Source of the DNA: Candidatus Woesearchaeota archaeon
Lineage (GTDB): Archaea > Nanobdellota > Nanobdellia > Pacearchaeales > UBA284
Assembly: GCA_964481435.1 (NCBI GenBank)
Contig: CAYZTH010000002.1
Coordinates: 1-36,846 of the forward strand
Length of the DNA stretch: 36,846 nucleotides
Reading direction: 5' to 3'
This document shows positions 16,548 to 36,846 of this stretch, in pieces (the stretch's first letter is position 1; each line of letters opens with the position of its first letter). The notes under the pieces were generated by a model. The model made no database searches. It saw only the letters and a program-made list of their open reading frames with translations, and was not told the DNA's origin. Made by a program: the position numbers and the translations under genes.

Positions 16548-16567
16548 AGCATAAAATATTCTTCTTA

Positions 16568-16598: not shown

Positions 16599-16600
16599 GT

Positions 16601-16858
16601 TTATTCCTTCTTCTCAATCTTCTCTTTCTTAGTTCTCTTTGGCAAGAACATTGCGAGAATCATGCATGCTAGGAATAGGAATAATAGGGGCCAAGCGACC
16701 CAGGCCGATAAAAGCTTGGCATTATTTGCGATTGTTGTTAAGAATATTAAGACAAGGGAGACAATCATAATAATAGATGAAGAATCTAGGACTAGCTTCT
16801 TCTTTGGCTTATCCTCTTTCTTTTCCTCTTTTTTATCGGGTTTCGTTGGATCTGGCAT
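16601..16858 (-). CDS. small membrane protein (2 TM helices, Lys/Glu-rich termini)
   Basis: 85-aa ORF, preferred over the overlapping + strand ORF 16581..16916. It has clean TM topology and a TATA-like AAGATTTATTAA about 30 nt upstream on the minus strand. Confidence 0.45.
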   Translation of the reverse strand: MPDPTKPDKKEEKKEDKPKKKLVLDSSSIIMIVSLVLIFLTTIANNAKLLSAWVAWPLLFLFLACMILAMFLPKRTKKEKIEKKE

Positions 16859-16893
16859 TTTTAATAAACAGGGTTATGTGTTAATAAATCTTT

Positions 16894-16925
16894 CAGCCAC
16901 AACGTTGTGCCTTTAGGCATGGCTG
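16894..16925 (+). repeat. bulged intergenic hairpin element, copy 5
   Basis: CAGCCA-CAACGTTG-TGCC-TTTA-GGCA-TGGCTG. It shares the CAACGTT(G) bulge with copy 2 and the TGC(C)/(G)GCA inner stem with copies 1, 3 and 4. Confidence 0.5.
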
Positions 16926-16973
16926 AACTAATTATCTTTTAATTTAGATATAAAGATGATTTGGGTGTTCTTC

Positions 16974-17579: not shown

Positions 17580-17786
17580 TCTTTTTGGAGTTAGTTTGAA
17601 CTTAAAAACCTAACTATAAGGGGTATAACCAGTAGATAGGGCCCATATGTATATTATAAGATTGTGGCTAGTCAATTATTTTGACCTCATTTTTAAGAAG
17701 AGTTTTGAAAGAATTCACTCTCTTAATACCTAATAAACATCATTATAGACTGATTCAATTCCAGATTCTAGAAGTCACTAGTATGC

Positions 17787-18059
17787 TTATTCAAGACTCA
17801 TGGTCATGAGTATATCGTTTGATTCATCCATAACCTTCTGCATTATCTTCTTATCAGGCATATCCATGAACTCTTCTTTATACTTCAATGCCTTACTTGC
17901 TGCGGCCATAGCACCTATCTTCTCCTGGGCCTTAACTTTCATCTCATTCATTACATATTGCAGAATCTCTTCTTGATCTGCTCTTGGGTTTATTTTCTTG
18001 TAGTTAAGTGCTTTTGATGCAGCAGACATCATAGCTATCTTTATTTTTTCGTCAGACAT
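17787..18059 (-). CDS. small protein with internal duplication
   Basis: Start taken at the internal ATG (MSDEKIKI), preceded by GGGAGAG and a TATA-like ATTTAAAGG. Two about 34-aa repeats (IAMMSAASKALNYK...VMNE and IGAMAAASKALKYK...VMDE). Confidence 0.55.
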   Translation of the reverse strand: MSDEKIKIAMMSAASKALNYKKINPRADQEEILQYVMNEMKVKAQEKIGAMAAASKALKYKEEFMDMPDKKIMQKVMDESNDILMTMSLE

Positions 18060-18166
18060 TTTCTCTCCCTTTTTTAAGTATACCTTTAAATGTTTTAACA
18101 CCTTTAAAAACATTATGGAACTCGAGTAGAGGTATTATTTTCCTTTGATTTGTAAGAGAACTGATA

Positions 18167-18196
18167 ATTTTTATACACACGAATGTGTATAAAAAT
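18167..18196. promoter_or_regulatory. perfect 13-bp inverted repeat (candidate operator) between divergent promoters
   Basis: ATTTTTATACACA-CGAA-TGTGTATAAAAAT. It ends 7 nt upstream of the TATA-like box (18203-18210) of the doc operon. Confidence 0.5.
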
Positions 18197-18231
18197 AGAA
18201 GGATTTAAATACTTGAAAACTGTAACTTTCT

Positions 18232-18567
18232 ATGTTACTAAGTAAAAAATCAATAATAGGTATAAATGAAGAATTTGACAAAGGTCATGTCGTAAATGAG
18301 AATAGTCTAGAGTATGCTCTTGAACTAGCCAGAAAATCAGAAAACTGGCTAAAGTCCCTAGCTGTCTTAGTAAGGGCCATACTTATTGACCATATTTTTG
18401 AAGATGGAAACAAAAGAACTGCTGCTGCAGTTATTGTGTCCTGGCTAGAGATGGAAAACCTGCATGGAGATATGGACCAGATAAATCGATTGATTGTCAA
18501 GATACTCAAAAAGAATATAACCAGCTTAAATGAGATAATGGAGCTAATAAAAAATGCAACAGAATAA
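18232..18567 (+). CDS. doc: Doc-type toxin (Fic/Doc family)
   Basis: HIFEDGNKRTAAA matches the Doc signature HxFx(D/N)(A/G)NKR. 111 aa. TATA-like ATTTAAAT at 18203-18210. Confidence 0.85.
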   Translation: MLLSKKSIIGINEEFDKGHVVNENSLEYALELARKSENWLKSLAVLVRAILIDHIFEDGNKRTAAAVIVSWLEMENLHGDMDQINRLIVKILKKNITSLNEIMELIKNATE

Positions 18568-18829
18568 AAAACAAGATTTTGGAAAAGATGATAAAAAGTT
18601 TTTGGAAACTGCGAAAAGAATCATCAAACAAAATCCAGAGATGTTTGAAGCTTTGATGGAGTTTGAAAGAACAAAGAAACTTCCTAAACTGACAAGAAAA
18701 GAAAGAATAAATGTTACTATAGACTCTAGACTTCTAAGAAAATTCAAGGATTACTGCAAGAAAAACAATAAAGTCATGTCAAAGTTATTTGAAAGTTATA
18801 TAAAAAAGGAACTGGGGATGAAGAACTAG
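18554..18829 (+). CDS. ribbon-helix-helix (CopG-like) protein, putative Doc antitoxin
   Basis: The C-terminal INVTIDSRLLRKFKDYCKKNNKVMSKLFESYIKKEL has an RHH strand-helix-helix pattern. It overlaps the doc 3' end by 14 nt. Confidence 0.6.
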   Translation: MQQNKKQDFGKDDKKFLETAKRIIKQNPEMFEALMEFERTKKLPKLTRKERINVTIDSRLLRKFKDYCKKNNKVMSKLFESYIKKELGMKN

Positions 18830-18841
18830 TTCTTCGTCTAT

Positions 18842-19258
18842 TTATTTCATATATCCTTTTCGAGTTCCATAAATAACTGTTGGGCCTACCACGAGTCCTA
18901 TGAGATTCGCAAAAATCAAAGATTCCAAGGGCTTGGGAGTTCCACCGAATTTATGCACTGAATAAAGGATTGTGTTGGCTACTGCCCAAGGAACTGCTGT
19001 AGCCAGAGTCCATGCTAGTACAGGATTTTTTATTTTTGAAAGATTTTGAGTGAGTTTTGAAATTGCGCTACTCATTAATAAATTATAAACCAAATTTCTT
19101 GAAGCTGCCTGGATTGCTTGATCAAAGCCAGCGCTATAATTGACCATAAATACATATGCTGAATTTACTGATGAAGTGACCAAGCCTATCCTTGGATTCA
19201 CCACAGAATAAACTGCTGTTTGAATTTTGTCGAGGAGAGATTCTTTCATCTTAATCAT
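18842..19258 (-). CDS. hypothetical membrane protein
   Basis: 138-aa ORF with hydrophobic segments. C-terminal LIGLVVGPTVIYGTRKGY. Confidence 0.45.
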   Translation of the reverse strand: MIKMKESLLDKIQTAVYSVVNPRIGLVTSSVNSAYVFMVNYSAGFDQAIQAASRNLVYNLLMSSAISKLTQNLSKIKNPVLAWTLATAVPWAVANTILYSVHKFGGTPKPLESLIFANLIGLVVGPTVIYGTRKGYMK

Positions 19259-19457
19259 CCTTGGCTATCAAAACCTTACCCTCTTCAAAGACTAAACCAG
19301 CATCATTTTCGAAAGAACCATAAAAATAATCTTTTCCTCTGTGCATAAGCCACTTAGGGTATTTATCATTTTGAACAACTGAAAGAACTTCGGCAATAAA
19401 CATTGTATGAGTTCCGACGCTCAGAGTTTGAATTGTCTTGCACTCCAGGCTTACTGG
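19251..19457 (-). pseudogene. possible remnant of a flavin reductase-like (FMN-binding split-barrel) gene, C-terminal about 65 aa only
   Basis: The open frame reads APVSLECKTIQTLSVGTHTMFIAEVLSVVQNDKYPKWLMHRGKDYFYG... It resembles the C-terminal (G)DH-x-hh-GEV...PLhY.RG.Y signature of flavin reductase domains. The only ATG is at 19403 (50 aa), and the N-terminal about 100 aa of the domain are absent. Confidence 0.35.
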
Positions 19458-19511
19458 GGCTTATTCTTTAATCGACCATATAACCTATCCCAGATACCTC
19501 TCGCTGATTTT

Positions 19512-19703
19512 CTAATGTCCATCTTTACCTCCCTCAATCTTTATTTCATTTACAGTTTCATCTTGTTCGAGAATATTGATTGTGATTTCGGCAATCGTGC
19601 CGGGCTTAAGATGAGATTCGAGAATTCGAGGAATAACTATGATAGACTGAGAACCATGTTTTGCTATCTTTTTTGTGATTGTGAACTTCTTGTTTTTATT
19701 CAT
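19512..19703 (-). CDS. AbrB/SpoVT-like (swapped-hairpin) DNA-binding protein
   Basis: 63 aa. KIAKHGSQSIIVIPRILESHLKPGTIAEITI resembles the AbrB/MazE/VapB-type looped-hinge motif. Confidence 0.55.
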   Translation of the reverse strand: MNKNKKFTITKKIAKHGSQSIIVIPRILESHLKPGTIAEITINILEQDETVNEIKIEGGKDGH

Positions 19704-21307: not shown

Positions 21308-21724
21308 ATGAAATCGTCAATATCGGAAAAAGTAAAAGATAGAATTTATGATGTTCGAGAATATATTGAAGAAAAAGCAATATATCCTGCACTTCTTTTA
21401 GTCTCCCCCCTGGTGGTAATGCTAGCAGCCACCACGGAGTCTAAAAGAATAAAATACAGTCTAAGAGAAGCGCTGAATCTTTATGCGGGTATTGCATTAC
21501 CCCTTTTGATTGCAGGTTCTTTTATCTATTATAAATTAAATCAAGCAATTAAAACAGATAATCCCTGGATACGAGCAGGGATGGTTGGATTTTCTTTGGG
21601 GGTTAGTGGTCCCGTAACAATTCCCGGATATGCTCTTGGATCTTATACTGCAAGAAAGTTGAACCGGCAAAGATTAGAAAGAGCAAATAAACTAGAACAA
21701 ATAACTTCTAATTATTCAACATAA
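21308..21724 (+). CDS. hypothetical membrane protein
   Basis: 138-aa ORF with 3-4 hydrophobic segments. GVSGPVTIPGYALGSY near the C-terminus. Confidence 0.45.
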   Translation: MKSSISEKVKDRIYDVREYIEEKAIYPALLLVSPLVVMLAATTESKRIKYSLREALNLYAGIALPLLIAGSFIYYKLNQAIKTDNPWIRAGMVGFSLGVSGPVTIPGYALGSYTARKLNRQRLERANKLEQITSNYST

Positions 21725-24405
21725 ATAGCTGGCTTGCCAGGCTTGGCTTTGCTTGCTTTGTTCTGGGGATCTACCTTGTTCTTATCATTGACTGCAAAAA
21801 CTTCAAGAGGTAAGTTAAGGGATTTTTGAATACTTTCTTTTGATTGTTTGTATGTGTTAAGTTCATTTGGAATTGTATATAAAAATACTTTTTTTGGAAC
21901 TTGTTTCTTTTCAGCTAACATCTTAAGGATATTACTTATGTCCTGAATTGTCTTACCAACTGCTTGCTCTTGCTTTTCAAGATTCTCATTTATCTTGCTT
22001 TCTTGTACTTTTGGCCAGGACTCAAGAGATAGGAATGTCTTATTTCCTAAATTGTGCCAGAGCTCTTCTGTGATGTGAGGACAGAAAGGGTGAAAAAGCT
22101 TGAGAAGAATTTCGTAGTTCTCTCTTTTTATCGATTCAGATAAGGAGTCTATACAGCCCATAATCGGGATAATTGCTTTGGGATACTCAAAATTCTCAAT
22201 ATTCTCTGAGACTTTCTTTATTGCTGAATGAATCTTGTTCTCTTGTGAAGGATTGGTTTCATTCTTTATTTTTTCTTTTAATCGGATTAATCTATTTATT
22301 ATCCTAAAACTTCCTTCAACTCCTTCATTTGTCCATTCCATTGGCTTGTCTGGAGAAGAGACAAAAGTCAAGAATAATCTTGCCGTATCTATTCCATACT
22401 TTTCAGAGATTTCTGTCTGGAAAACAACATTGCCCTGGCTTTTTGACATCTTTTTGCCGTCTTTGTAGACTACGCCTTGATTAAATAATCGTGTAAATGG
22501 CTCGTCAAAATTCACCATCTTTATATCTTTCAAGAACTTAGTCAAGAATCTTGCATACATCAGATGACCAACAGCATGCTCTATTCCTCCGATGTATTGA
22601 TCGACAGGCATCCAGTAATTCACTTTTTTTGAATCAAATGGCTTTTCTGAGTTCTTATTATCACAGTATCTTAGATAGTACCAGCTACTATCCATAAAAC
22701 CGCCGAGGGTGTCTGTCTCTCTTCTCGCTTTTCCGTGGCATTTAGGACAGGTCGTATTAACAAAATCTTTATTAGATGATAGGGGATTCCCTGTGACTTT
22801 GAAATCAACTTTTTCTGGAAGCAATACTGGAAGTTTATCTTCTGGAACAGGCACAATGCCACATTTATCGCAGTATACAATTGGAATTGGTGTTCCCCAG
22901 TATCTCTGTCTTGAAATAAGCCAGTCTCTTAACTTGTAGTTTGTTGTTTTCTTTCCGAGTTTGTTCTTTTCAAGCCAATCTGCCATCTTAGGCAAAGCTT
23001 CTTGGTTATTCATCCCTGAAAATTTTCCAGAATCAAATAAAATGCCATTATCTGTATATGCTTCTTTGAAATCTTTTGGGTTAATTGATTTTCCATCTTT
23101 GCTTATAACAAATTTTAATGGAATTTTGTATTTTCGCGCAAATCTAAAATCTCTCTTATCATGCGCATCACACATCACAACTCCGGTTCCGTACATCAAA
23201 GCAAAATTAGAAACATAAACCGGAATTTCTTCATTAGTTGCGGGATTAATAACATACTTTCCGATAAATATTCCTTCTTTTTCTTTTTCTTCGTTTATTC
23301 TATCTTCTATTTTTTCTTTTAAAATCTTTTTAATGAAATCTTTGACTGGTTTTTCGTATTTGGTTCCTTTTATTAATTCGTCAACCAGTGGGCTTTCTGG
23401 CGCAATAGCAATAAAAGTTACTGAGAAGATAGTATCGCATCTTGTTGTAAATGCTTCTAAAACTTTTTTTGAATCTTTTAATTTGAAAAATATGTTAACC
23501 CCTTCACTTTTTCCAATCCAATTCCTTTGCATGGTCTTTATCTTATCGGACCACTGAATCTTATCGAGGTCATCGAGAAGACGGTCAGTATACTTTGTTA
23601 TCTTGAAGAACCACTGTTCCATCTCTTTTTGTATAACTTCATTTCCACAGCGCCAGCATTTCCCTTTTTCAGCTTCTTCATTAGCAAGAACAGATTGACA
23701 GTGTTCACAGTAGTTTACAGGTGCTTTTTTTCGATAAGCTAATCCATGCTCTAAAAGTTTTAAGAAGAGATATTGATTCCATTTGTAATACTCTGGTTGG
23801 TGAGACATTATCAGTCTAGACCAATCATAGCTATTCCCTAGGGCCTTTTGATACTCTATTATCTTCTTTATTGCATCTTCTGCGTATTTTTTAGGATGAA
23901 TCCCTTGCTTTTTTGCCGCATTCTCTGCAGGAAGGCCAAAAGAATCATAACCTACTGGATAGAGTATGTTAAAACCCTGCATCCTCCTGTATCTTGCAAA
24001 GACATCTCCGATGGTATAATTCCTCACATGACCAACATGCAAGAAAGAAGCAGAGGGGTAAGCATACATTTCAAGAACATAGAATTTTTTCTTTTTATTG
24101 TCTTCTTTGACCTGGAAGATTTGAGATTTTTCCCAAGAATCTTGCCACTTTTTCTCTATACTTGAGAAATTTATTGAAGCATTAGGGGGTGAATTTTGAG
24201 ATAAGTGCAATGAAGACCTTATTTTTTCTTGTACTTTTTTTATATCTTTTTTAAAAGATTCGGGAAAATCAGATGCAATAAATTTACAATTTTCACATAT
24301 CAAAAAAGCATTTCCGCCATATAAACTAATCTTTGTACAACCACATCTCGGGCAAAACTTCATCATATTTTCTGTTTTCTTCGTTCCCTTTTTCATGTTC
24401 AACAT
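21712..24405 (-). CDS. leuS: leucyl-tRNA synthetase, bacterial-type, with N-terminal zinc-ribbon extension
   Basis: HVGHVRNY (HIGH), GYDSFGLPAENAA (bacterial-type), CP1 editing motifs TTRCDT and GTGVVMCDAHDKRDFRFA, KMSKSQGN (KMSKS). The first about 80 aa contain CPRCG...CENC. Confidence 0.95.
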   Translation of the reverse strand: MLNMKKGTKKTENMMKFCPRCGCTKISLYGGNAFLICENCKFIASDFPESFKKDIKKVQEKIRSSLHLSQNSPPNASINFSSIEKKWQDSWEKSQIFQVKEDNKKKKFYVLEMYAYPSASFLHVGHVRNYTIGDVFARYRRMQGFNILYPVGYDSFGLPAENAAKKQGIHPKKYAEDAIKKIIEYQKALGNSYDWSRLIMSHQPEYYKWNQYLFLKLLEHGLAYRKKAPVNYCEHCQSVLANEEAEKGKCWRCGNEVIQKEMEQWFFKITKYTDRLLDDLDKIQWSDKIKTMQRNWIGKSEGVNIFFKLKDSKKVLEAFTTRCDTIFSVTFIAIAPESPLVDELIKGTKYEKPVKDFIKKILKEKIEDRINEEKEKEGIFIGKYVINPATNEEIPVYVSNFALMYGTGVVMCDAHDKRDFRFARKYKIPLKFVISKDGKSINPKDFKEAYTDNGILFDSGKFSGMNNQEALPKMADWLEKNKLGKKTTNYKLRDWLISRQRYWGTPIPIVYCDKCGIVPVPEDKLPVLLPEKVDFKVTGNPLSSNKDFVNTTCPKCHGKARRETDTLGGFMDSSWYYLRYCDNKNSEKPFDSKKVNYWMPVDQYIGGIEHAVGHLMYARFLTKFLKDIKMVNFDEPFTRLFNQGVVYKDGKKMSKSQGNVVFQTEISEKYGIDTARLFLTFVSSPDKPMEWTNEGVEGSFRIINRLIRLKEKIKNETNPSQENKIHSAIKKVSENIENFEYPKAIIPIMGCIDSLSESIKRENYEILLKLFHPFCPHITEELWHNLGNKTFLSLESWPKVQESKINENLEKQEQAVGKTIQDISNILKMLAEKKQVPKKVFLYTIPNELNTYKQSKESIQKSLNLPLEVFAVNDKNKVDPQNKASKAKPGKPAIYVE

Positions 24406-24548: not shown

Positions 24549-25451
24549 ATGAAAAAGAGTGTGAATGTGTCCCTAGTGATTGCCGTGATGTTTATTCTTG
24601 TTGGGCTTTTATTTGTAAATGGGTGCGGCAAACCCGCAGACACTTACACAGAAGATCAGAATCAAACTTATGGAGATGAAAATCCGAATCAACAACAACC
24701 AACAGAAACTCCAAAAGAATACAAGACCTCTGATAAGTTATCCACAATAACACTAACAAGAGACCTTATCGATTCTAGTGGCGAACTCTCTCAACATGTT
24801 TCTTTCAAACTCTCGGGATATATGAAAGAAATTGATCCTACTTCAAATGACCAGACGCGATATTCAGATCGCGCCTATACTCTCGACCAAGGTAGAATAG
24901 ATTGGAGCATACAAGAACTGGAGATTCTTGAAGGGAATAATTGCAGATCAACAACAACAATCGGGGGCGAAGGAAATGATAGCCTATCTGCATATAATGT
25001 ATACTATAACCGGGATGGCCCTCAAAAAGATGATAATGGAAATATCGTCCATCTAAAAGCATATAATATTAAGATATCTTATATTGAACATGGATTAAAT
25101 GAACAAGGAAAATCAGAACTTAAGATCCTTGGGTCACTTTTAATGCCAGTTATGAATACTTATGTCGAAACTAAAAAAACAACAAATGCGTTATGTGGGG
25201 GCACTGATTCTTTAATGGATAATGCGATTCTTCAAATTCCTATAAAATTCATCGGCTTTAACCCAGATCAAAAAACCTTTTCAAACTCATTTGAAGCTGT
25301 AGAGGGTTATGAAAATCAGATTCAAGGAACAATAACCTCGGGTTATAAAGAAGCTGTATTTGCATACATGACCCCGGTCTTGGTCACAGAAATTCCAATT
25401 CCAGGCAATGAAGCGTCATGGAAAGTTTCATGGAATCTAGAGATGCCATGA
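24549..25451 (+). CDS. secreted lipoprotein-like protein
   Basis: Signal peptide MKKSVNVSLVIAVMFILVGLLFVNGC with a lipobox-like VNG|C, followed by a Q/N/T/P-rich linker. Confidence 0.6.
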   Translation: MKKSVNVSLVIAVMFILVGLLFVNGCGKPADTYTEDQNQTYGDENPNQQQPTETPKEYKTSDKLSTITLTRDLIDSSGELSQHVSFKLSGYMKEIDPTSNDQTRYSDRAYTLDQGRIDWSIQELEILEGNNCRSTTTIGGEGNDSLSAYNVYYNRDGPQKDDNGNIVHLKAYNIKISYIEHGLNEQGKSELKILGSLLMPVMNTYVETKKTTNALCGGTDSLMDNAILQIPIKFIGFNPDQKTFSNSFEAVEGYENQIQGTITSGYKEAVFAYMTPVLVTEIPIPGNEASWKVSWNLEMP

Positions 25452-25509: not shown

Positions 25510-26601
25510 ATGGTGGATCCAATAACAACAGCGGCCACAGCAAAGACTGCTAAAAAGGTAAAAGACGTCACGCAGAAACCTGTAAAAAGCGCAGGAGATG
25601 TAGCGTTTAAGGTATTTCTCTTGATACTATTGGCAATAATTACTATTCTTCTTATAGTTATAATTGCATTTATTATATTCGGCTGGGTCTTTCCATCATC
25701 TAATAATACGTTTATTCCTTACCCTGGTGCAGGACCAGGAGAATCAGGTTCATACTCCTCTGGTTATAATTATACAAATTATATTAACGCCCACTATCCG
25801 GGACCAGGGAGTCTTGGGGGGGAGTGTTACTGGGCCTATATCTGCCCCGGTGTTCCACCGGCTCCAACTTGCGACGATTGCACAGACGAGAATCGTTCAT
25901 GCTATAATAATTCAGAGTGTTGCTCTGGATGCTGTGAACAGTTCAGCATAAATTATCCGATTGGGGATATCCCTGGCCAGACTGCTTTCGTTGGGGGAAT
26001 ATGCAAACCAATTGAAAGATGCCAGCAACAGTGCAAGAATTATGCTCAGACATGCACAAACACAAGCCAGTGTTGTGATGGATATTGCTGTAAGAGCATG
26101 GGCGGAACATACAAAGAGTGTAGACCTAATTTAGAATGTAATTCGTGCACAGAAAATACTCAACTCTGTTCGAGTTCAAGTGAATGCTGTTCAGGATGCT
26201 GTAATGATGGATTATGCAGCCTTGAAACTCAGTGCTGCCATGAAGAAACTCAAACATGCTCGGGCTCTTCTGATTGCTGTTATGGTCTTGATTGTATAGA
26301 CGGACTATGCCAACAACCCGAATGCAAGAACTATGCAACCCAGTGCGAAACTAATGATGACTGCTGTTCAGGATGTTGTAAGAACATGGGAGGAACATAC
26401 AAAGAGTGCAGGCTTGAAAATGAATGCTCGGCTAGCTGCAATCCAATTGGAGGTTCTTGCCTTATAGGGGCTGACTGCTGTTCAACAGTATGCCTCGGAA
26501 ATAATACCTGCGGCTGTATTCAAGGAGGATATTCTTGCCCCGTAGCAGGTTCATGTTGTTCTCCTTACGAATGCGTAACAGGTATGTGTGTAATACCTTA
26601 A
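25510..26601 (+). CDS. N-terminally anchored cysteine-rich surface protein (seven CX6CX5CC modules)
   Basis: Lys-rich N-terminus, TM helix (aa about 35-60), a G/S/Y-rich spacer, then 53 Cys between aa 106 and 360 with a repeated spacing pattern. Confidence 0.8.
   Translation: MVDPITTAATAKTAKKVKDVTQKPVKSAGDVAFKVFLLILLAIITILLIVIIAFIIFGWVFPSSNNTFIPYPGAGPGESGSYSSGYNYTNYINAHYPGPGSLGGECYWAYICPGVPPAPTCDDCTDENRSCYNNSECCSGCCEQFSINYPIGDIPGQTAFVGGICKPIERCQQQCKNYAQTCTNTSQCCDGYCCKSMGGTYKECRPNLECNSCTENTQLCSSSSECCSGCCNDGLCSLETQCCHEETQTCSGSSDCCYGLDCIDGLCQQPECKNYATQCETNDDCCSGCCKNMGGTYKECRLENECSASCNPIGGSCLIGADCCSTVCLGNNTCGCIQGGYSCPVAGSCCSPYECVTGMCVIP
26032..26139 (+). repeat. intragenic duplicated module (copy A) of the Cys-rich gene
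   Basis: Encodes CKNYAQTCTNTSQCCDGYCCKSMGGTYKECRPNLEC. It is a diverged direct repeat of 26323-26427 at both DNA and protein level. Confidence 0.6.
26323..26427 (+). repeat. intragenic duplicated module (copy B) of the Cys-rich gene
   Basis: Encodes CKNYATQCETNDDCCSGCCKNMGGTYKECRLENEC. Confidence 0.6.
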
Positions 26602-26658: not shown

Positions 26659-26666
26659 TTTATAAA
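26659..26666 (+). promoter_or_regulatory. BRE/TATA-like box of the giant surface protein gene
   Basis: AAAAG-TTTATAAA-CGAT, 35 nt upstream of ATG 26702. AGAGAAG lies before the ATG. Confidence 0.45.
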
Positions 26667-26701: not shown

Positions 26702-29700
26702 ATGGCGAATACCTGGCAATTTTTTTTAACAGTTGTATCTGTAGCCTTATTATTATTCATGCTGATTCCACTTGTTTCGGCAAATGTATATATCCCGGAT
26801 ATTTATTTTACTCTTCCTGACAGTGTCTTTTATGCAAATGAGAACATTCAATTAAAAGGCTATGTTTATTTTACCAATATAAGCGATAACGGAACATACT
26901 ACTCCAATAATACGGTATTAGTTGGTCAAGAAATTAACCTCAGTATTTGGGATGAAAGCAGAACACTAAATGCTTCTTATAACTTGACTACAGATTCTAA
27001 TGGTTCATTTTATTCAAGATCTAATTTTTATTTATCTTCCCCTTTAGTTAGCGCCCCCCTTGTTCCTGGAAATTATTATATAAGGGCGAGCGTTGTTCTT
27101 AATAATACAAATAATAGCAATTCAACGTACTATTCTGAAATTGAATTTAGTGTTGCAAATCAAACTATGGATTTTATAAGAGTAAGCTCTGACAAGGCAA
27201 GATATAATCCCGGAAATGGAGTCATAGTTAGTGCAGAAGCTGTAAAAAAAGTAGGAGACAGAATATTGTATATCTCAAATGTTTCTATATCTGGAAATCT
27301 AAGAGATTCTGCAAAAGAGGTCTTGGAGGCTTTTTCATGCACAACTGGGAGCAATGGAAAGTGCACAACAACAGTTACAGCGCCAGACTATGGAGAATAT
27401 ATCTTAGAGGTTAATAATTTCAAGGCATTTAGTTCATTCCAAGTTGTACCATTTTCTTTTATACTATCTGTTAAAGATGAAAATGGAAAATCTATAAAAA
27501 ATGTTTTTTCGCGAGGGGAAAAGGCAAAAATTGAAGTTAAAGCGAATAATGCAAGTTCTTCAGATACATATCGTTTCATTGGATATATAAAAGACTCTTC
27601 TGGAAGAATAATTGAAAATATCTCAACGGTGGTGCTAAATTCAAATAACTCTTTTGCAAACAGCTATGAGGTTAGTATTGACTCTGATTATAATTATGGA
27701 AGCTACTCGGTCTACGTTGATGTTACAAAAGATGGAGATGGGACTATCAGTTCTCTAACTTCTTTTAAAATTGAAGATTGGAGTCTTTCTTTGAGCAAAA
27801 AATCATCGCGTTCTGGGTTCGAATATGGGTACAGCGCATTTCCAAATTCTACTTTATACTTTGAACTTCTTCCGTTGTATAGAATAAATGGATCAATAGT
27901 GCCCAACATAAGCTTCTCTTCATTCACCGCATTGCTCAAAGATGAATTAAATAATGTTATAAATAGTTCTAATGTTTCTTGGAATTCGAGTTGTGGAACT
28001 TCTGGATGTTACGAATTCTCTTTAAGAGCTCCTGAGAACTATGGAAAATACTCTCTTTATGCTACCCTAGTTTATAGTAATAATGTTCAGACAATTAGCA
28101 GAGCAATCAATATAATAAATACTGTAATCTCTGCTCAATCAACTGATAAAAACGGCAATATAAAAGAATTATTTGGGACAAATGAGTTTGTTTATCTGTC
28201 TTTTTTAACATATAATCTAACTAATCCTAGTGTAAATCTAAGTGATGCTGAATTATTTATTGTCCAATATATGAATGGAACTGAAATTTCATATTCAAAT
28301 GCCAGTTCTTTTGAAGAAGTCAATGGAACAGGTTATAGATGGTCTTGGAATTCTAGCCTGCAAAGAATAAAGATGGACACTCTAAAAATGGGAGGGTTAT
28401 ATAATATCTATATCTTTGGAAATAACAGGTCAGCAGGAGCCGAAGCTAAATTTATTATAAATCCATATGACGCATGTATCTCTCCAAAAAATTCTTTAGA
28501 AACTAACAGTTATTATGTGTGGCAATTCAAGACATCAGATACTATTTATTTTGAAATTAAGATAAGCCAAGCAAACAACCCATTGGGCAAAGCAACTGCA
28601 CTAAATCTATCCTCAACCTCAAATTCAAGCACCAATGGAACACAAGGCGGACTTGGGGCTGCATGCGCAATGGATACTACAACAAAACAAGTTGTTACAA
28701 ATGCGACACTAACAATTGATGAAGTAAAAAATTCAGAATCTGGAGTCATACAGTCTTTTAATTCATCTGGGTCGAGCTGCACTCCAAAGGATAATCTGGG
28801 AACCTATATTTGCACTCTTAAACCCTTGTCAAAATGGGATTCTGGACAAATACTTGTTAAGGTTGATATTGAAGGACAAGATGGTTCAACCAGCACGGTT
28901 TATGGTATGTTTGAAGCACGAGCATTTTATTTATACGGATGGAGCCAATCATGGCAGAACAGCCCGACCTCTAATATAACTTTACAAATACAAATATATG
29001 AAGCAGGAAGCAATTGGTGGGGCAGCGGGAGCGGCATAAGCGGCACAGTAACTGTAACTAAAGTTGAATATCAAGGAGGCTCTGGAGAGTGGATATGGCC
29101 CCCAATTGATTCAGGGTATAATGTTTCTTTATTAAATTCAACTTCAGTAAGTGGAAGTACCGGAACTATGACATTAGATTCTTCGTATGCTTCTGGCGGA
29201 AGATGGAAAACTGGAAATTATAGAGCAGTCCTTAAAGCGACAACTTCCTCGGGAGACACAGACTATGGTTATGCTTGGTTTGGAATCAGAATGTGGGATG
29301 TTTATGGCTCTCCGATAGAGTGCACTGATTCTTCATGCAATTATAAGAGTTATTTTAATACAAGAGAAAATATAACTTTATTTATTCAAGTTAATAAACC
29401 GGGAATGTGGGGAAGTTACAATCAAGATTTGAGTGATAATGTCAGCGTAAGCGTTAAGAAAATCCAAGATTGCAGAACCTGGCCTTGTAAAGAACTAAAT
29501 CAGACAGATTATAGCGCAAATAGCATAAATGTCAGCAGAACAAGCGGGTACTATTGGAGTGGCAATTTAACTTCTCTTTCAAATTATATAATATATATAA
29601 ACTCAACTTCAGGAATTTGGGATGCGGGTTCATACAATGTTATCCTTGATGTTAAAGGAATCAATGAAAGTGATAGTGGTTCAGCTTGGTTTAATTCAAT

Positions 29701-31645
29701 TGCATTTTATGTTGAAACGCAGCCAGTTAATTCTAATGGGACTTCTTATAAGTACAATATAAAACCCGGAGAAACAGCTTATATCAATGTAACAACAACT
29801 AAAAATTATAAATATTCAAGTTCTGGAACAAGGTATAATTTCTCAGATTATGTAAATACGAGTATTGTTAATATAACTCTGTCAAGATGGGATCAAAATT
29901 CTCAAAGTAGTGTCAAATATAACTTACAGTCTCTAAATGTCGCTCCTTTACAAGTAAATGGAACCCAGATATTAAATATTACTTACACTAACGGGAATTG
30001 GCCTTCTGGATACTATTGGGGAGAACTTTTAATGAACAACTCTGATGGAGAGAATTCAAGAGGATGGCTATACTTTAATGTACAACCATTTAGAGTTGAT
30101 ACTTCTATAAGTTCATATAATGTGGACTATGATAGTTGTGCTAATGCTAGCTTGAATGCGAGAGAGCCTGATTGGAATTACTATTCTTTACTTTATGGAA
30201 ATTATTCTGTTACCGGGGTATATGAAGATATATGGTCTATGTCGGGAGTTCAAAGAACAACCTATACTAATTATACCCTCAATGGAGGGGATAATACAAC
30301 TGAATTCAATGCCACAACGTATATAAATATCTGTCCAAACGAGGGAGGCTGGGGAAGCGGAAGTTGGGGAGGATATCACTACTTGAGTCTTATTGTTTCA
30401 AATGCTTCTGACCTGGCATCCAATCAAACAGGGTGGTTGTATTTTAGGACAATTCCCTTCATAACAAGCTGGAACAGTGGTAGTAATATAAGAAAAACTT
30501 CCTCGAAAACAGCAACTGTAACCCTAACAAGAGTTTTAGGAGGAAATGCATCTGGAAATTTAACTAAACTCTATCAATGGAGATATGATGCCTACAAAAA
30601 TGGAGAAGAAGAGTATATATACAAAACGAATGATAGTTGTTGGTCAAATGTTTCGAGCGCCTGCACAATAAATGGTGCTGCAAATATTACAATTTTTCCT
30701 CCATCATATGGATGGAAGTCTGGATACAATTATATTTATTCTGTATGGACGAATGTAAACGGTAGCACAAGGTTCGAGGATTATAATGGAATTTATTTCC
30801 AAGCAAGAGATATTTATTATGGGACATTCTCTAATTACGATCAAAATAACAGTTATAAATATAATTTTGCTCAAGATGAAAATCTAACTATAAAAGTGGT
30901 TGTAAGAGATCCTGATGATAACCTAGCAAATGTCAATATCACAAAGGTCGAATATAGCACTAATTATTATACTTATAGTGATGCTACATATACTACAACT
31001 AATTTAAGCTATGGAACACACCTCATAACTATGACAAATTCAGGAAATTGGTCTTTGGGATATTATTATATCAGAATAACTGTAACTGGTTCAGAAGGAA
31101 GTGTATTATTTTCTGATACTGGAAATCTTCGAGTTAAAGATATGGTCGCTCCAACACTAAATATAACATATCCCATAAACAATGTGACCTATTCAAATAA
31201 TTCTTTGATATTTAACATTACTCTCTCTGAAAATGGTATTTGTGAGTCAACGCTTTATAACTACTATAATTTCTATAATTCGTTTTGTTATAATTGGAAT
31301 GCAACCAATTCATCAAATCAAACAAAAGAAGCATGTAATACTACAAAGTATAATTACAGCGGAAACACCTATTATTATGAATGGCTTTCTTACCACTATC
31401 ACTCTCTTTACTCTGATAATGGGAGTGCATATTGTTATAGATCTAGTTCTTGTTCTGGCTCAAATGACGCTTTAATAGCAAGAGCAAGAGTCTTTACTTC
31501 CGGAACATCATCAACAAGCCAAAGCTTTACTCTTAACACCACTAATTGGACAGAACAAAATTATGGAGTATATATTAATTGCTATGATAATGATTGGAAT
31601 TATGGCCATGAATTAGTTACTGTCGCTGTAAACAACCCTGTTTAA
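26702..31645 (+). CDS. giant secreted surface glycoprotein (S-layer/adhesin-like), no membrane anchor
   Basis: 1647-aa uninterrupted ORF. Signal peptide MANTWQFFLTVVSVALLLFMLIPLVSA. N/S/T/Y-rich, with about 80 N-x-S/T sequons by hand count. No C-terminal TM helix. Confidence 0.85.
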   Translation: MANTWQFFLTVVSVALLLFMLIPLVSANVYIPDIYFTLPDSVFYANENIQLKGYVYFTNISDNGTYYSNNTVLVGQEINLSIWDESRTLNASYNLTTDSNGSFYSRSNFYLSSPLVSAPLVPGNYYIRASVVLNNTNNSNSTYYSEIEFSVANQTMDFIRVSSDKARYNPGNGVIVSAEAVKKVGDRILYISNVSISGNLRDSAKEVLEAFSCTTGSNGKCTTTVTAPDYGEYILEVNNFKAFSSFQVVPFSFILSVKDENGKSIKNVFSRGEKAKIEVKANNASSSDTYRFIGYIKDSSGRIIENISTVVLNSNNSFANSYEVSIDSDYNYGSYSVYVDVTKDGDGTISSLTSFKIEDWSLSLSKKSSRSGFEYGYSAFPNSTLYFELLPLYRINGSIVPNISFSSFTALLKDELNNVINSSNVSWNSSCGTSGCYEFSLRAPENYGKYSLYATLVYSNNVQTISRAINIINTVISAQSTDKNGNIKELFGTNEFVYLSFLTYNLTNPSVNLSDAELFIVQYMNGTEISYSNASSFEEVNGTGYRWSWNSSLQRIKMDTLKMGGLYNIYIFGNNRSAGAEAKFIINPYDACISPKNSLETNSYYVWQFKTSDTIYFEIKISQANNPLGKATALNLSSTSNSSTNGTQGGLGAACAMDTTTKQVVTNATLTIDEVKNSESGVIQSFNSSGSSCTPKDNLGTYICTLKPLSKWDSGQILVKVDIEGQDGSTSTVYGMFEARAFYLYGWSQSWQNSPTSNITLQIQIYEAGSNWWGSGSGISGTVTVTKVEYQGGSGEWIWPPIDSGYNVSLLNSTSVSGSTGTMTLDSSYASGGRWKTGNYRAVLKATTSSGDTDYGYAWFGIRMWDVYGSPIECTDSSCNYKSYFNTRENITLFIQVNKPGMWGSYNQDLSDNVSVSVKKIQDCRTWPCKELNQTDYSANSINVSRTSGYYWSGNLTSLSNYIIYINSTSGIWDAGSYNVILDVKGINESDSGSAWFNSIAFYVETQPVNSNGTSYKYNIKPGETAYINVTTTKNYKYSSSGTRYNFSDYVNTSIVNITLSRWDQNSQSSVKYNLQSLNVAPLQVNGTQILNITYTNGNWPSGYYWGELLMNNSDGENSRGWLYFNVQPFRVDTSISSYNVDYDSCANASLNAREPDWNYYSLLYGNYSVTGVYEDIWSMSGVQRTTYTNYTLNGGDNTTEFNATTYINICPNEGGWGSGSWGGYHYLSLIVSNASDLASNQTGWLYFRTIPFITSWNSGSNIRKTSSKTATVTLTRVLGGNASGNLTKLYQWRYDAYKNGEEEYIYKTNDSCWSNVSSACTINGAANITIFPPSYGWKSGYNYIYSVWTNVNGSTRFEDYNGIYFQARDIYYGTFSNYDQNNSYKYNFAQDENLTIKVVVRDPDDNLANVNITKVEYSTNYYTYSDATYTTTNLSYGTHLITMTNSGNWSLGYYYIRITVTGSEGSVLFSDTGNLRVKDMVAPTLNITYPINNVTYSNNSLIFNITLSENGICESTLYNYYNFYNSFCYNWNATNSSNQTKEACNTTKYNYSGNTYYYEWLSYHYHSLYSDNGSAYCYRSSSCSGSNDALIARARVFTSGTSSTSQSFTLNTTNWTEQNYGVYINCYDNDWNYGHELVTVAVNNPV

Positions 31646-31648
31646 AAA

Positions 31649-32713
31649 ATGAGAAAAACAAAGGAAAAATTAATAGCGGGTAGAAATTCAATCTTGTTCT
31701 TTATTATTTTATTTTTATTCTTAATTAATCTTTGTTTGGTTTATGCTTCAGCTGATTTCCAAGTAACTAGTTTTTCGTGTTCTCCAGAAGAAATTGTTGT
31801 GAGCAGCAGTTTTTCTTGTACAGCCCAGATTAAAAACTCAGGGGATAACGGAAGTTTGGGCGTTGTTACACTTTATCCTGATTCTAGTGCCTGGCTTGAA
31901 GAGTCTAACTATCCCCAAGCATATGGGTCTAGTATTCAGGGTGGGGAGACTATATCTATTGCATTCTCTGAATTAAGAGCAACTAAATCAGGAACAAATG
32001 GTTTTTCAAAGATTATGCTTGATTCGGTTACAGACAATTATGTCTCAGATAATGGGATCAGTGTGAATACTATTAATGTTATTGCTGTTTTGGAGGTTTC
32101 TGATTCTTCTGTTTCTATTGGAGATATCTTTGATGTCATTGTAGAAATTACTGCAGGCGGGAGTATCGATGTTGTTCTTAAATTTGAAGGAAATGCTGGC
32201 TGTGATTTAGGAAGCCAATCCAGTCAAAAAACAATAACTGGAATGACTGATGGAAGTAAACAGTCGAGAACATGGACCGCGGTTACGCAAGCAGATGATG
32301 TTGCTTGTTCATTTACAATTACTGCTACTGCAACAGGAACAGGAGGTATTGCTTCAAAACAAGATAGTTCTTCAGAAACACTAACCTGTTCAGACTGCCC
32401 TGTTGAAGAAGATGAAGGAGGCGGAGGAGGAGGGAGCGGTGGAGGAGTAGCCTCAGCAAATGAAACTGATGCAACTAATCAGACAAACCAGAATCCAGAA
32501 TTGAATAATAACACAAATATTCTGAATAATCAAAGCACTACCAATAAAACTGGTGAGAATAAAGAGGGAAAAGGGAATAACTTAACCTGGTTGTGGTGGG
32601 CTATCTGCGTTGCTGTTGTGGCTGTATTCACTGTTTTGGCTGTTGTTCTTACAAGAAAAGAGAAAGATCCTTATCATAAGAATTACAAGTACAAAAGACC
32701 TAACAAGTACTAA
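31649..32713 (+). CDS. C-terminally anchored beta-sandwich (CARDB-like) surface protein
   Basis: Signal/anchor ILFFIILFLFLINLCLVYASA. VTSFSCSPEEIVVSSSFSCTAQIKNSGD is a CARDB-like strand pattern. Then a Gly6-SGGG linker, an N/T/Q-rich stalk, the TM helix WLWWAICVAVVAVFTVLAVVL and a short basic tail. It starts 3 nt after the giant gene's stop. Confidence 0.75.
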   Translation: MRKTKEKLIAGRNSILFFIILFLFLINLCLVYASADFQVTSFSCSPEEIVVSSSFSCTAQIKNSGDNGSLGVVTLYPDSSAWLEESNYPQAYGSSIQGGETISIAFSELRATKSGTNGFSKIMLDSVTDNYVSDNGISVNTINVIAVLEVSDSSVSIGDIFDVIVEITAGGSIDVVLKFEGNAGCDLGSQSSQKTITGMTDGSKQSRTWTAVTQADDVACSFTITATATGTGGIASKQDSSSETLTCSDCPVEEDEGGGGGGSGGGVASANETDATNQTNQNPELNNNTNILNNQSTTNKTGENKEGKGNNLTWLWWAICVAVVAVFTVLAVVLTRKEKDPYHKNYKYKRPNKY

Positions 32714-34009: not shown

Positions 34010-36846
34010 TCATCTGTTCTTTATCAACTTTTTAACTTTATCCTGTTCTTTGTGATGCAGAATATCTAGGATTCCATCTTCATCCTTGTGCAACCGGTCT
34101 AGATTACCTTTCAATTTACGGGCAATATTAGTTTCTTCTTCAAATATAGCTTGAACGGAGTTTATCTTGTTCTTTATTTCCATCCTGATTGCTGAATGTC
34201 CTAAGTTCTTGTAATTTTCAGACTTCATCAAAATCTTTTCTTTTTCAACTAGCTTTTTGTATTTTCCAAACCAGTCCGCCATCTCATCCAAGGCCCTCAT
34301 TCTATCTGAGTCGAGACTCTTTATTTTACCTGCTTGAGAATAAGGTATCTTCTTTTTGTCTATCATCTTCCCAATCATCCCAGGACTTATCTTTACCCTA
34401 TCTCTTAATCTTGTTCTTCTATTCAGGCATAATTTTATTCCCCAGCCAGAATTCTTTCTTATTTTATTATTAAACTTCTGAATATTATAAAATGCATCAC
34501 TAGGGTCTTGTCTATTTTTAGTCTTTATATCGCCCAATATGTCCTCTTGTTTCTTCTTAAGGGAGACAAAATTGGTTATTCTCTGGACTACTTTTTCAAG
34601 AGTCAATCTCTTGAGTGGATTATATACGAAAGGGAGTATAATCAGGATTATTGCAATCAAGATAATCAGGTATAATAAACTCCGCCAATTGAATCTTCCC
34701 ATGCAACCGTTATCTGTGCAATCATAACTGATAACCAAAATACCCAGAATCTTTGAATTTGGACTACATCTACAGTCTTTACAGCAGGTTTTGCTTGTTT
34801 CGTCTACGTCACACCGATTATCGCCACATGAAGATCCCCCAACCTGTGCCCCGGCATTTTCTTTGGTTTGATTTGTTTCATTTGATGGAGTCACTGGATT
34901 TGTTTGATTAGTCACATTGGTATTATTCTTTAGAGTTACATCTCCTCCGCCGTCCCAAAGGATTGTTGGAGCGACATAATTTATGTTGAATGTCCTATTT
35001 TCAGTTATGTTTGTCTGGCTAGCAGTATCATTACACCAAACCGCCCACTTATAGTTCTGTGCATCAGAAATTCCAGGAACAGTTATGTTCAGCCAGGTAT
35101 CATTTGTGTATGAATCATTGGTATAGTTCGCTCCCCATGTTCCGGTCGTGTTTGTCCAGAGCTGAATCATGGAAACAGCAACATTGTCATAACATTTCAT
35201 ATCAAATGTGACTGAAGAACTTGTTGAATTGTAACTATCTGCAGGATTGGCCCCCTGGGCTGCGACTGGATTTGTTGAATCTCCCCCTCCTGCTGAGGCA
35301 GTCACTAGCGGAACAAGTATGCTGAAGCTCGTCGCATTTCCAGAGATAGTTTTATTCTCTATATCAACTAAGCTGTAACTGACATTCTTCCAGTCTGTTG
35401 AATTATAGTCTAGCATAACCATCAAGCTTTCATTTTTTCCTACGGGAATATCCTCTGCAGAATAGGAGATATTAAGGAAAAGCCAGTTGCTTCCTGTCAA
35501 GTTTGTTACATTGACATATTTTGAAATATTCGAATAATCTACAGGGTCGCTTGGAGGAATTTCAACGCCATCTATTTCAAAGTTACCTGAGTAAGTATAA
35601 CTTATCTTAGTCGGGAAGTACTCGCCGATTGTCTCGTTCATGAAGATATTATCGTGGCTGTAATCGCCTAGCACAATGTCCTTTGCATTTTGGGCATTTA
35701 GTACGTTATTGTTAAAAGTGTTGTTGCTCGAAGGATCACTACTTGAGCCAGCAAAATAAACAGCCCAACTATCTAATCCACTAGTATTTATGTTATTACT
35801 AGAAACATTGAAGAAAGTAGTTCTGTAAAAATAAATTCCATAACCTCCCCACCCACTGGAGTCACCTAATCCTTCCATTGTTATATTATTATTATTGACA
35901 TGGGAAATCGCCCCACTTGGATTATCGGTCTGTCTGTTATATTCTAAATAAATACCTGTGCTATAATCTCCAGTAACCAGGATGTTATTATTAATAACAC
36001 TTAAATTACCTGCAGAATAATCAATATAAACGCCGTAGTACCAACCCTCGGAAGCAGCAGTAATATTATTATTATGAATACTGCTGTTTGAACTTAATGC
36101 TTGAAGATGTATGCCTGTCTGAACCGCCGTGACATTATTATTATATGCGCTGCATCTGTCAACCATATATAAATCAATTCCGGTTTGAGCCGAGTACACA
36201 TTATTATCAAAAACAGAGTCATTATATAGGGGAGGGTAGCCGTCTATATCTCTTGTCCATAACTCTATGCCTATGCTATTTGCTGATGTTCCATCAACAG
36301 TAATATTATTTCCAAAAATATCATTATTATTTGAACCCCGTTGCATAAGAACCCCATAACTATTGGCTGCACTTCCAGTAGCATGAATCGTGCTATAAGA
36401 GATAAAATTATTACTGCAGTTATAATCCACGATTACTCCGTAACCATCTTTAGTAGTTATATTATTATAAGAAACATTAGTGTTATTCGTGCCATACCCT
36501 AGACTGATTCCCCAGTTAACTCCAATAGAAGTGATATTGTTATTAAAAACTGTTCCATTGCTTGCATTTTTAAAATAGATTCCTCCGGTACTTGTGTGTG
36601 GAACACTTGTGTTTATATTGCAGTTTTTCACGGTTGTGTTTGTTGAATTAGAATAAACCCCATGACCTGTAGCGGAAGAGGCATAATTAATTGTAAAACT
36701 GTTGCAGTCAATAATTACATCTGCCCCAGTTACATTAAAGCAAGTTCCTGCTGAATTAATGCTAGTATTCAAAGTGTAAATTCCGGGGGAGGTTATATTT
36801 GCACACCAGCCGATATCTTCTGCAGATGCTAATTGGGTTAAAGAAA
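34010..36846 (-). CDS. single-pass surface protein with a parallel beta-helix (PbH1/NosD-like) ectodomain and a 203-aa cytoplasmic tail; 5'-partial
   Basis: At least 10 coils of the type (F/Y/H/I)NNN(I/V)T..., a Big-like domain, an N/T-rich stalk, a CGDNRCDVDETSKTCCKDC motif and the TM helix LLYLIILIAIILIILPFVY. The track's start (36772) is a TTG and the frame stays open to the window end. Confidence 0.85.
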   Translation of the reverse strand, partial: SLTQLASAEDIGWCANITSPGIYTLNTSINSAGTCFNVTGADVIIDCNSFTINYASSATGHGVYSNSTNTTVKNCNINTSVPHTSTGGIYFKNASNGTVFNNNITSIGVNWGISLGYGTNNTNVSYNNITTKDGYGVIVDYNCSNNFISYSTIHATGSAANSYGVLMQRGSNNNDIFGNNITVDGTSANSIGIELWTRDIDGYPPLYNDSVFDNNVYSAQTGIDLYMVDRCSAYNNNVTAVQTGIHLQALSSNSSIHNNNITAASEGWYYGVYIDYSAGNLSVINNNILVTGDYSTGIYLEYNRQTDNPSGAISHVNNNNITMEGLGDSSGWGGYGIYFYRTTFFNVSSNNINTSGLDSWAVYFAGSSSDPSSNNTFNNNVLNAQNAKDIVLGDYSHDNIFMNETIGEYFPTKISYTYSGNFEIDGVEIPPSDPVDYSNISKYVNVTNLTGSNWLFLNISYSAEDIPVGKNESLMVMLDYNSTDWKNVSYSLVDIENKTISGNATSFSILVPLVTASAGGGDSTNPVAAQGANPADSYNSTSSSVTFDMKCYDNVAVSMIQLWTNTTGTWGANYTNDSYTNDTWLNITVPGISDAQNYKWAVWCNDTASQTNITENRTFNINYVAPTILWDGGGDVTLKNNTNVTNQTNPVTPSNETNQTKENAGAQVGGSSCGDNRCDVDETSKTCCKDCRCSPNSKILGILVISYDCTDNGCMGRFNWRSLLYLIILIAIILIILPFVYNPLKRLTLEKVVQRITNFVSLKKKQEDILGDIKTKNRQDPSDAFYNIQKFNNKIRKNSGWGIKLCLNRRTRLRDRVKISPGMIGKMIDKKKIPYSQAGKIKSLDSDRMRALDEMADWFGKYKKLVEKEKILMKSENYKNLGHSAIRMEIKNKINSVQAIFEEETNIARKLKGNLDRLHKDEDGILDILHHKEQDKVKKLIKNR

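Follow-up and report, generated by a model that had tools for sequence, protein, structure and literature searches.

We analyzed two adjacent genes, encoding a giant secreted protein and a small, C-terminally anchored partner, in a stretch of DNA from a Candidatus Woesearchaeota archaeon (36,846 nucleotides; assembly GCA_964481435.1, contig CAYZTH010000002.1, positions 1 to 36,846), which is referred to here in its whole length as the window. The initial annotation, made from the sequence, had proposed that the two products form a two-component S-layer analogous to SlaA/SlaB of the Sulfolobales, with the small protein as the membrane pedestal of the giant. The positions, sizes, and 3-nt spacing of the two open reading frames (ORFs) were as given there, and the pair is laid out as follows.

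26659..26666, forward strand: TATA-box-like element TTTATAAA, about 40 nt 5' of the giant ATG, read from the sequence
26702..31645, forward strand: ORF of the giant protein, 1,647 aa, stop codon included in the coordinates
31646..31648, forward strand: spacer AAA (3 nt) between the giant stop codon TAA and the ATG of the small gene
31649..32713, forward strand: ORF of the small, C-terminally anchored partner, 354 aa

The GC content of the window is about 35%, and the TTTATAAA element is probably the promoter of a two-gene operon. The small gene has no room for its own promoter in the 3-nt gap, and the two genes are likely to be co-transcribed and translationally coupled. Stop-codon readthrough from the giant into the small gene was considered and rejected: the ORFs are in the same frame within the window, but this frame relation is not conserved across loci. 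No paper describing the pair was found in the literature.

Homologs of both proteins carry the names Pacearchaeota, Woesearchaeota, "Nanoarchaeota," Aenigmarchaeota, and Micrarchaeota. The window organism belongs to the Pace/Woese group within DPANN. Loci were collected by scans on short peptide patterns, and their counts do not measure prevalence. The forward synteny set comprised 77 loci from species-representative genomes, 69 of them with downstream sequence. The small gene lay directly 3' of the giant gene on the same strand in 68 of these 69 loci; the gap was between -14 and +19 nt in 51 of the 68, and a 4-nt ATGA overlap occurred in 14. The reverse set comprised 57 metagenome loci that were found with the small family and had at least 400 bp upstream. 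The giant was directly upstream in 52 of them and the C-terminal extension of a long giant in 4 more (56/57). The pair occupies one locus per metagenome-assembled genome (MAG). Conservation of the pair in related MAGs, proposed as a check in the initial annotation, was therefore borne out, with the small gaps mostly kept, and the two genes do not in general occur independently of each other; the single exceptions, L028 and L095, are described below. Across the 77 genome loci, no other gene of the window kept its place beside the pair, apart from one leucyl-tRNA synthetase (LeuRS) match and one MBL match in close relatives. A conserved wider neighborhood was rejected on this basis, as the lipoprotein-like, Cys-rich, MBL, beta-helix, and LeuRS genes of the window are not syntenic elsewhere. 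The giant and small genes are the only syntenic unit, and their adjacency is far from chance.

The giant protein has the following parts.

26702..26782, forward strand: signal peptide, aa 1 to 27, hydrophobic segment 4 to 32, predicted cleavage between LVSA and NVY (after VSA27)
28043..31642, forward strand: C-terminal 1,200 residues (448 to 1647), about ten beta-sandwich (Ig/MG-like) domains in the AlphaFold2 (AF2) model
31580..31603, forward strand: motif C-Y-D-x-D-x-N-Y, aa 1627 to 1634, in the Cys-rich last domain, identified by conservation

The family comprises 104 homologs with 33 to 55% identity over the full length, mostly 1,630 to 1,680 aa long. An alignment of 72 homologs showed conservation from end to end, and Trp, Tyr, Gly, and Cys residues were invariant at many positions. 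The mature N terminus is conserved as "SAN.Y..DIYFT" directly after the signal peptide, and C1627, D1629, D1631, and N1633 are nearly invariant. Residues 4 to 32 form the sole hydrophobic segment of the giant; it has no C-terminal transmembrane (TM) segment, and no Cys lies near the signal peptide, so that there is no lipobox. None of the 104 homologs had a TM segment outside the N-terminal region. The signal peptide and the lack of a TM anchor or lipobox described in the initial annotation were thus confirmed, and the same anchorlessness extends to 104/104 homologs.

The AF2 model of residues 448 to 1647 (mean predicted local distance difference test [pLDDT] score, 85; predicted template modeling [pTM] score, 0.47) is essentially all beta. 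The N-terminal 447 residues, judged by eye from their sequence pattern, are estimated to add about three or four more domains, for about 13 overall. Neither the giant nor the small protein had a significant match in Pfam or NCBIfam, and the S_layer_C and S_layer_N profiles of Pfam matched neither of them at an E value of ≤1. The giant family also gave no real match to PDB sequences in phmmer and profile searches. Foldseek matched the giant model to long Ig/MG arrays, namely, Nup210, HYDIN, titin-like proteins, the alpha-2-macroglobulin/complement family, mastigoneme, and GhpA, with TM-scores of 0.1 to 0.2 in the top 50, among which there were no S-layer proteins. Both families are unannotated and without relatives among solved structures.

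The giant contains 81 N-x-S/T sequons, compared to 39.6 ± 5.3 expected from its composition (z = 7.8), and 34 of these are conserved in at least 80% of the 72 homologs, suggesting heavy N-glycosylation. Long variants of the giant (1,800 to 2,326 aa) keep the 1,650-aa core and append PQQ/BamB-type beta-propellers, PKD, or Big_13 modules at the C terminus (P0081, residues 2003 to 2324; P0091, 1679 to 1954; P0098, 1708 to 1787; P0057, 1873 to 1939). In the genome loci examined, the long variants are still followed by the small gene. These C-terminal add-ons may be lineage-specific ligand-binding tips.

The small protein is organized as follows.

31649..31753, forward strand: signal peptide, aa 1 to 35, hydrophobic segment 7 to 37, AF2 helix 9 to 31, predicted cleavage after ASA35
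31757..32389, forward strand: two-domain beta-sandwich head, aa 37 to 247, the pair-specific part, mostly with pLDDT of >90 in the AF2 model
32399..32578, forward strand: flexible stalk, aa 251 to 310, an N/T/Q-rich stretch with pLDDT below 50 and no secondary structure
32417-32446, forward strand: hinge GGGGGGSGGG, residues 257 to 266, within the stalk, read from the sequence
32582..32653, forward strand: TM helix, aa 312 to 335 in the AF2 model, hydrophobicity segment 311 to 337
32654..32710, forward strand: short basic cytoplasmic tail TRKEKDPYHKNYKYKRPNKY, read from the sequence

The AF2 model of the small protein, built on 74 homologs, had a mean pLDDT of 83. The model and the sequence together recovered the signal peptide, two beta-sandwiches, Gly hinge, sequon-bearing stalk, TM helix, and basic tail that had been recognized in the initial annotation, and two of its descriptions held in part. 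The window copy of the beta-sandwiches, called CARDB-like, has no significant Pfam hit, but 38 of the 74 homologs match CARDB (PF07705) at an E value of ≤0.01 (best, 1.8e-7). The N/T/Q-rich stalk is present in the window copy but is peculiar to it, as most homologs have a third beta-domain of about 100 aa at that position. The stalk (aa 251 to 311) has 5 sequons (z = 2.4 in the compositional test), and the head, which is highly conserved, has only 1 (z = -1.1). The near absence of sequons from the head fits a shielded or interface surface. The family comprises 115 homologs, mostly of about 430 aa, with 43 to 68% identity over the head. A C-terminal TM segment was found in 104 of the 115, and a basic tail after it was seen by eye in the listed C termini.

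An exhaustive HMMER search of 1.84 billion cluster representatives with the small-family profile gave 4,784 matches, 2,385 of them at an E value of ≤1e-10, and the best 150 were inspected. The head was present in 72 of these, 71 of them 95 to 699 aa long and one of 1,162 aa. The other 78 proteins (86 to 1,811 aa) carry only the C-terminal anchor cassette, i.e., profile positions of about 235 to 425, which span a Gly/Ser linker, the third beta-domain of about 100 aa, and the TM helix with its basic tail, and their matches end within 34 residues of the C terminus. The carriers sampled included a subtilase/beta-helix protein and proteins with Ig-type or CarboxypepD_reg domains. Examples of the cassette are P0119 (residues ~270 to 442) and L079:5402-8809 (product residues 948 to 1125), and in L079 it closes a 1,135-aa protein adjoining the pair. 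Neither Pfam nor NCBIfam recognizes this cassette, and most of the 2,385 representatives at an E value of ≤1e-10 appear to carry it alone. Compared with its homologs, the small protein of the window has lost the beta-domain of the cassette, with the N/T/Q-rich stretch and its 5 sequons in place of it. Since 78 of the best 150 matches carry the cassette alone and the head is essentially limited to pairing, the small protein is best described, from its predicted domain order, as an adaptor in which a pair-specific head is set on a generic C-terminal anchor, one that is built in cis into other surface proteins.

Large secreted ORFs in the pair loci were screened as well. One of them, in locus L011 from a Pacearchaeota MAG, is at least 784 aa long, lies 4.5 kb downstream of the pair, and has a weak match to Pfam S_layer_C. 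Its N terminus presumably resembles those of S-layer proteins of the Methanococcales/NEQ300 type. We refer to the family of this ORF as SLP900. It has 651 database matches of 860 to 940 aa, about six times the 104 found for the giant; S_layer_C is the precomputed annotation of many of them, and one bears the name "S-layer like family." The S_layer_C profile scored above its curated Pfam cutoff in 3 of 7 full-length members. The members are strongly acidic with 12 to 21 sequons, and a C-terminal TM segment was found in 0/118. SLP900 genes occur on the same contig as the pair in at least four cases (L011, L033, JAIYKV010000083.1, and Ga0364475_15270950 from JGI). A different S-layer candidate, of the S_layer_C family, is thus found beside the pair in relatives, which tells against the pair being the sole S-layer there; this coexistence concerns the relatives and not the window organism, the contigs of which end just beyond the window. 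The gene order on JAIYKV010000083.1 is giant, small, 240 aa, 2,069 aa, 1,135 aa, HVO_A0114-like, and SLP900. Within the genome set, an SLP900 gene lay near the pair (within 10 kb) in 2 of 77 loci, which would be about what random placement gives if most genomes, assumed to be of about 1 Mb, hold one SLP900 gene. In a published survey, Woesearchaeota proteins of 700 to 914 aa are listed beside NEQ300 as predicted formers of hexagonal (p6) lattices, and in a metatranscriptome study, annotated S-layer genes were among the ten most expressed Woesearchaeota genes. SLP900 is probably the primary S-layer protein of Pace- and Woesearchaeota, coexisting with the pair.

On the anatomy, conservation, synteny, glycosylation bias, modular anchor, and S-layer gene coexistence in relatives described above, we lean toward reading the pair as a membrane-tethered surface complex of DPANN archaea, probably an auxiliary element of the envelope, in which the small head binds the giant. 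Both proteins would be exported via their signal peptides. The giant, as a heavily N-glycosylated array of about 13 beta-sandwich domains with no anchor of its own, would be held noncovalently by the two-domain, almost sequon-free head. The small protein would be kept in the membrane by its flexible stalk, single TM helix, and basic cytoplasmic tail and would act as an adaptor, with a giant-dedicated head fused to a generic C-terminal anchor cassette. The complex could be S-layer associated or a second layer, or it could be a projecting contact or adhesion structure, and the C-terminal end of the giant would accept lineage-specific, possibly binding, modules. The gene-pair logic, the strong conservation, and the adaptor build support the small protein as pedestal or tether of the giant as the best reading of the pair. 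With an S_layer_C gene present in relatives, the complex is most likely not the primary lattice. The S-layer label for the pair is weakened, and the pair is SlaA/SlaB-like in logic only. It is a new conserved two-protein surface complex, although an anchorless protein with an adjacent TM partner is already known as a kind.

Several points weigh against this reading. The contact between giant and small protein is one that we infer. A giant-small fusion was not found by BLAST of the small protein against the 104 giants, and no fusion carrying the head was present among the best 150 profile matches. Locus L028 (positions 9923 to 19532) has a full-length giant (1,676 aa) without a small gene. There, the giant is followed by a glyoxalase-like gene, NrdR, and ribonucleotide reductase, and a search of the locus in every frame, with 10 kb to either side of the giant, gave no small-family match; the small gene may lie elsewhere or have been lost. 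Conversely, in L095, one of the metagenome loci, a small gene has no recognizable giant upstream. The near-constant length of the giant, its full-length conservation, and its single copy look more like a lattice protein than a fast-evolving adhesin. SLP900 is itself anchorless, which makes a role of the pair inside the S-layer architecture possible. Finally, the S_layer_C gene was seen in relatives only, as the contigs of the window organism end too soon.

The best-surviving alternative, which we nevertheless consider rather unlikely, is the one proposed initially: the giant would be the lattice canopy and the small protein its pedestal, in a SlaA/SlaB-like two-component S-layer that is either the sole layer or a second regular one. 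The likeness is real at the level of the gene pair. In SlaA/SlaB as well as in the Nitrosopumilus maritimus S-layer protein NmSLP (Nmar_1547) with Nmar_1546, a large, anchorless, glycosylated, Ig-rich protein adjoins a small Ig-domain protein with a C-terminal TM helix, and for SlaA/SlaB the small subunit is taken to be the tether of the large one. The co-oriented adjacency and tight coupling of an anchorless large and a C-terminally membrane-anchored small subunit were found here too (3-nt gap in the window; 68/69 and 56/57 loci), and the sizes are close (1,647 and 354 aa compared to 1,734 and 334 aa in N. maritimus). Ig-like arrays are typical of archaeal S-layer proteins. The uniform length and end-to-end conservation of the giant, its one copy per MAG, its dense and positionally conserved sequons with the N-glycosylation that they predict, and the TATA-like box upstream are also in line with a lattice protein, and a published table gives two S-layer protein systems for one archaeon (Ignisphaera). 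This logic has been recognized across Thermoproteota, Nitrosopumilus included, and Sulfolobus is described as a three-component system.

However, the resemblance does not extend to sequence or to a specific fold. Searches with phmmer and with profiles of both families against all PDB sequences, which include SlaA (7ZCX), SlaB (8QOX), and NmSLP (8C8L), showed no similarity to SlaA, SlaB, or the Nitrosopumilus S-layer protein, in agreement with the impression recorded in the initial annotation. None of the three was in the Foldseek top 50 of either model, which held only generic Ig/MG arrays with TM-scores of ≤0.3 relative to the query. SlaB has a coiled-coil stalk, whereas residues 250 to 310 of the small protein are disordered without a helix in the AF2 model and most homologs have a beta-domain there. 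The lineage is DPANN here and Thermoproteota for SlaA/SlaB. In addition, related genomes hold another, classical S-layer gene: a protein of the S_layer_C family, which is the predicted p6 lattice former in Woesearchaeota, is encoded on at least four pair-bearing contigs, and that family is the far more numerous one. The variable C-terminal add-on modules of the giant also fit a lattice poorly. The analogy therefore stands for the strongly conserved gene-pair logic and fails for sequence, fold, coiled coil, and the place of the pair as the only S-layer candidate in relatives. A broader form, in which the pair makes up a second regular envelope layer or a host-contact array in Pace-, Woese-, Aenigm-, and some Micrarchaeota, beside an S_layer_C lattice and independent of SlaA/SlaB, with a pedestal that reuses the anchor cassette, is a speculative proposal that we likewise hold to be on the unlikely side.

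Membrane-bound pillars made up of the pair might instead keep the anchorless S_layer_C lattice clear of the membrane, giving a three-component envelope, although we think this quite improbable. The absence of a TM anchor from S_layer_C-family members (0/118) would agree with such a structure, and pair and S-layer gene lie in one surface-gene island in one Pacearchaeota sub-lineage (L011, L078/L079, and L080). It has been speculated in print that the S-layer proteins of DPANN archaea depend on a separate stalk protein with a TM segment, and the description of Sulfolobus as a three-component system offers a parallel. However, only 2 of the 77 genome loci have an S-layer gene close to the pair, about the random expectation for genomes assumed to be of about 1 Mb, and the S_layer_C family is far more widespread than the pair, so that most of its carriers would lack such an anchor. 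The very heavy predicted glycosylation of the giant also suggests an exposed rather than a buried position.

Similarly improbable is that the two genes are merely co-transcribed, with no physical link between their products, the giant being secreted or otherwise bound to the envelope, e.g., through glycans. The indirect nature of the case for the giant-small interaction, the lack of fusion proteins, and the giant of L028 with no small gene nearby would agree with this. It is difficult to reconcile with an adjacency that is almost invariant in both directions in four candidate phyla, all other neighbors changing, with a head domain essentially limited to pairing, and with the frequent start/stop overlaps. 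Least probable by far is an alpha-2-macroglobulin-like protease trap comparable to the membrane-tethered, operon-linked bacterial ECAM/YfhM of about 1,650 aa, for which the similar length, precomputed Pfam MG2 hits on many giant homologs and P0098 (a generic fold), and ECAM, Salmonella A2M, CD109, TEP1, and complement proteins among the Foldseek matches speak, but this identity was rejected on the absence of the CxEQ thioester motif (0/104 homologs) and of the alpha-helical thioester domain (the model of residues 448 to 1647 being all beta), and the Foldseek TM-scores are only 0.14 to 0.20 and no profile matched any A2M sequence in PDB.

Other known surface systems share parts of the architecture of the membrane-tethered complex that we favor. 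S-layer proteins of the S_layer_C/NEQ300 type (Methanococcales, Thermococcales, and Nanoarchaeum; predicted for Woesearchaeota) are likewise secreted, glycosylated, and anchorless and occur in the same organisms. They differ from the giant in length, acidity, sequon number, and S_layer_C match, as described above for SLP900, whereas the giant matches no S-layer family. PySLP of the Thermoproteales has a very long Ig-like array and a TM helix with a basic C-terminal tail as its anchor logic, but it unites lattice, stalk, and anchor in one polypeptide, whereas here a gene of its own encodes the anchor. An origin by fission from a self-anchored ancestor was tested by HHalign of the small against the giant family and found no support (probability, 12%). 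For Nanobdella aerobiophila, SlaA-like MJ1_0160 and SlaB-like MJ1_0707 have been proposed as a hypothesis. This DPANN system also has an anchorless major surface protein and a separate Ig-like anchor with a C-terminal TM helix; however, the two genes are not adjacent, and MJ1_0160 is weakly similar to NEQ300 and is not an Ig-array giant of about 1,650 aa. A separate stalk protein has been a matter of published speculation for Micrarchaeum. The bacterial alpha-2-macroglobulins ECAM/YfhM and Salmonella A2M share with the giant a length of about 1,650 aa, an array of beta-sandwiches, which in the giant may be of MG type, and, as predicted for the giant, a place in the cell envelope and an operon-linked partner. 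In contrast, the giant has neither thioester motif nor thioester domain and no lipobox and is a predicted archaeal N-glycoprotein.

Further genes of the relatives were recorded in the same loci.

SLP900 genes: L011:13128-15479; L033:3-2618; L079:10001-12628; L080:10001-12586; L148:3001-5661
HVO_A0114-family genes: L079:9054-9407; L080:9190-9540; L081:151-501; L148:2240-2599
Sequon-rich 2,069- to 2,130-aa neighbors: L078:12184-18393; L080:1586-7978

An HVO_A0114-family gene (PF25212, 116 to 119 aa) lies divergently upstream of SLP900 in 4 of 4 loci inspected, which may reflect a conserved pairing of a regulator gene with an S-layer gene. The giant and small genes are followed in one Pacearchaeota sub-lineage by a gene for a sequon-rich protein of 2,069 to 2,130 aa. 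This protein is unrelated to the giant and is anchored by a C-terminal TM segment of its own ("LTWLW..."). The pair, this protein, and the SLP900 gene there form a larger surface-protein island.

The remaining genes of the window described here are as follows.

1499-4818, forward strand: five consecutive small genes (151 to 187 aa) with class III, type IV pilin-like signal peptides, e.g., KRGISPVIATILLVV
21712-24405, reverse strand: LeuRS with an N-terminal extension of about 60 aa and a CPRCGC...CENC zinc-ribbon-like motif
24549-25451, forward strand: 300-aa protein whose signal peptide ends in a lipobox-like "VNGC"
25510-26601, forward strand: 363-aa protein encoded directly upstream of the giant, with a TM segment at the N terminus and repeated CCSGCC-type motifs that hold 53 cysteines
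34010-36772, reverse strand: 920-aa ORF (950 aa as called on the source contig) with right-handed beta-helix/NosD repeats and 46 sequons

Neither the 300-aa nor the 363-aa protein had a family match. The former is possibly an archaeal lipoprotein, its gene showing no synteny with the pair elsewhere, and the latter was not found at an E value of ≤1e-5 in the 77 genome loci. The 920-aa beta-helix protein, which has a TM segment at residues 694 to 721 and ends in a charged tail of about 200 aa, is predicted to be another large surface glycoprotein; its gene, read from the opposite strand, is separated from the downstream end of the pair by about 1.3 kb that contain two small genes. The five small genes at 1499-4818 are a putative pilin or archaellin-like cluster.

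DPANN archaea live by contact with other cells, and their surface proteins are almost entirely unannotated. Few surface modules are conserved in several DPANN candidate phyla, and the pair, single copy and tightly coupled, is one of them. It is a concrete candidate for the means by which a giant glycoprotein without an anchor stays attached to the cell. The anchor cassette may help to mark membrane-tethered surface proteins when these genomes are annotated. The coexistence with an S-layer gene in relatives shifts the question from the identity of the S-layer in these organisms to the purpose that a second conserved surface complex serves.

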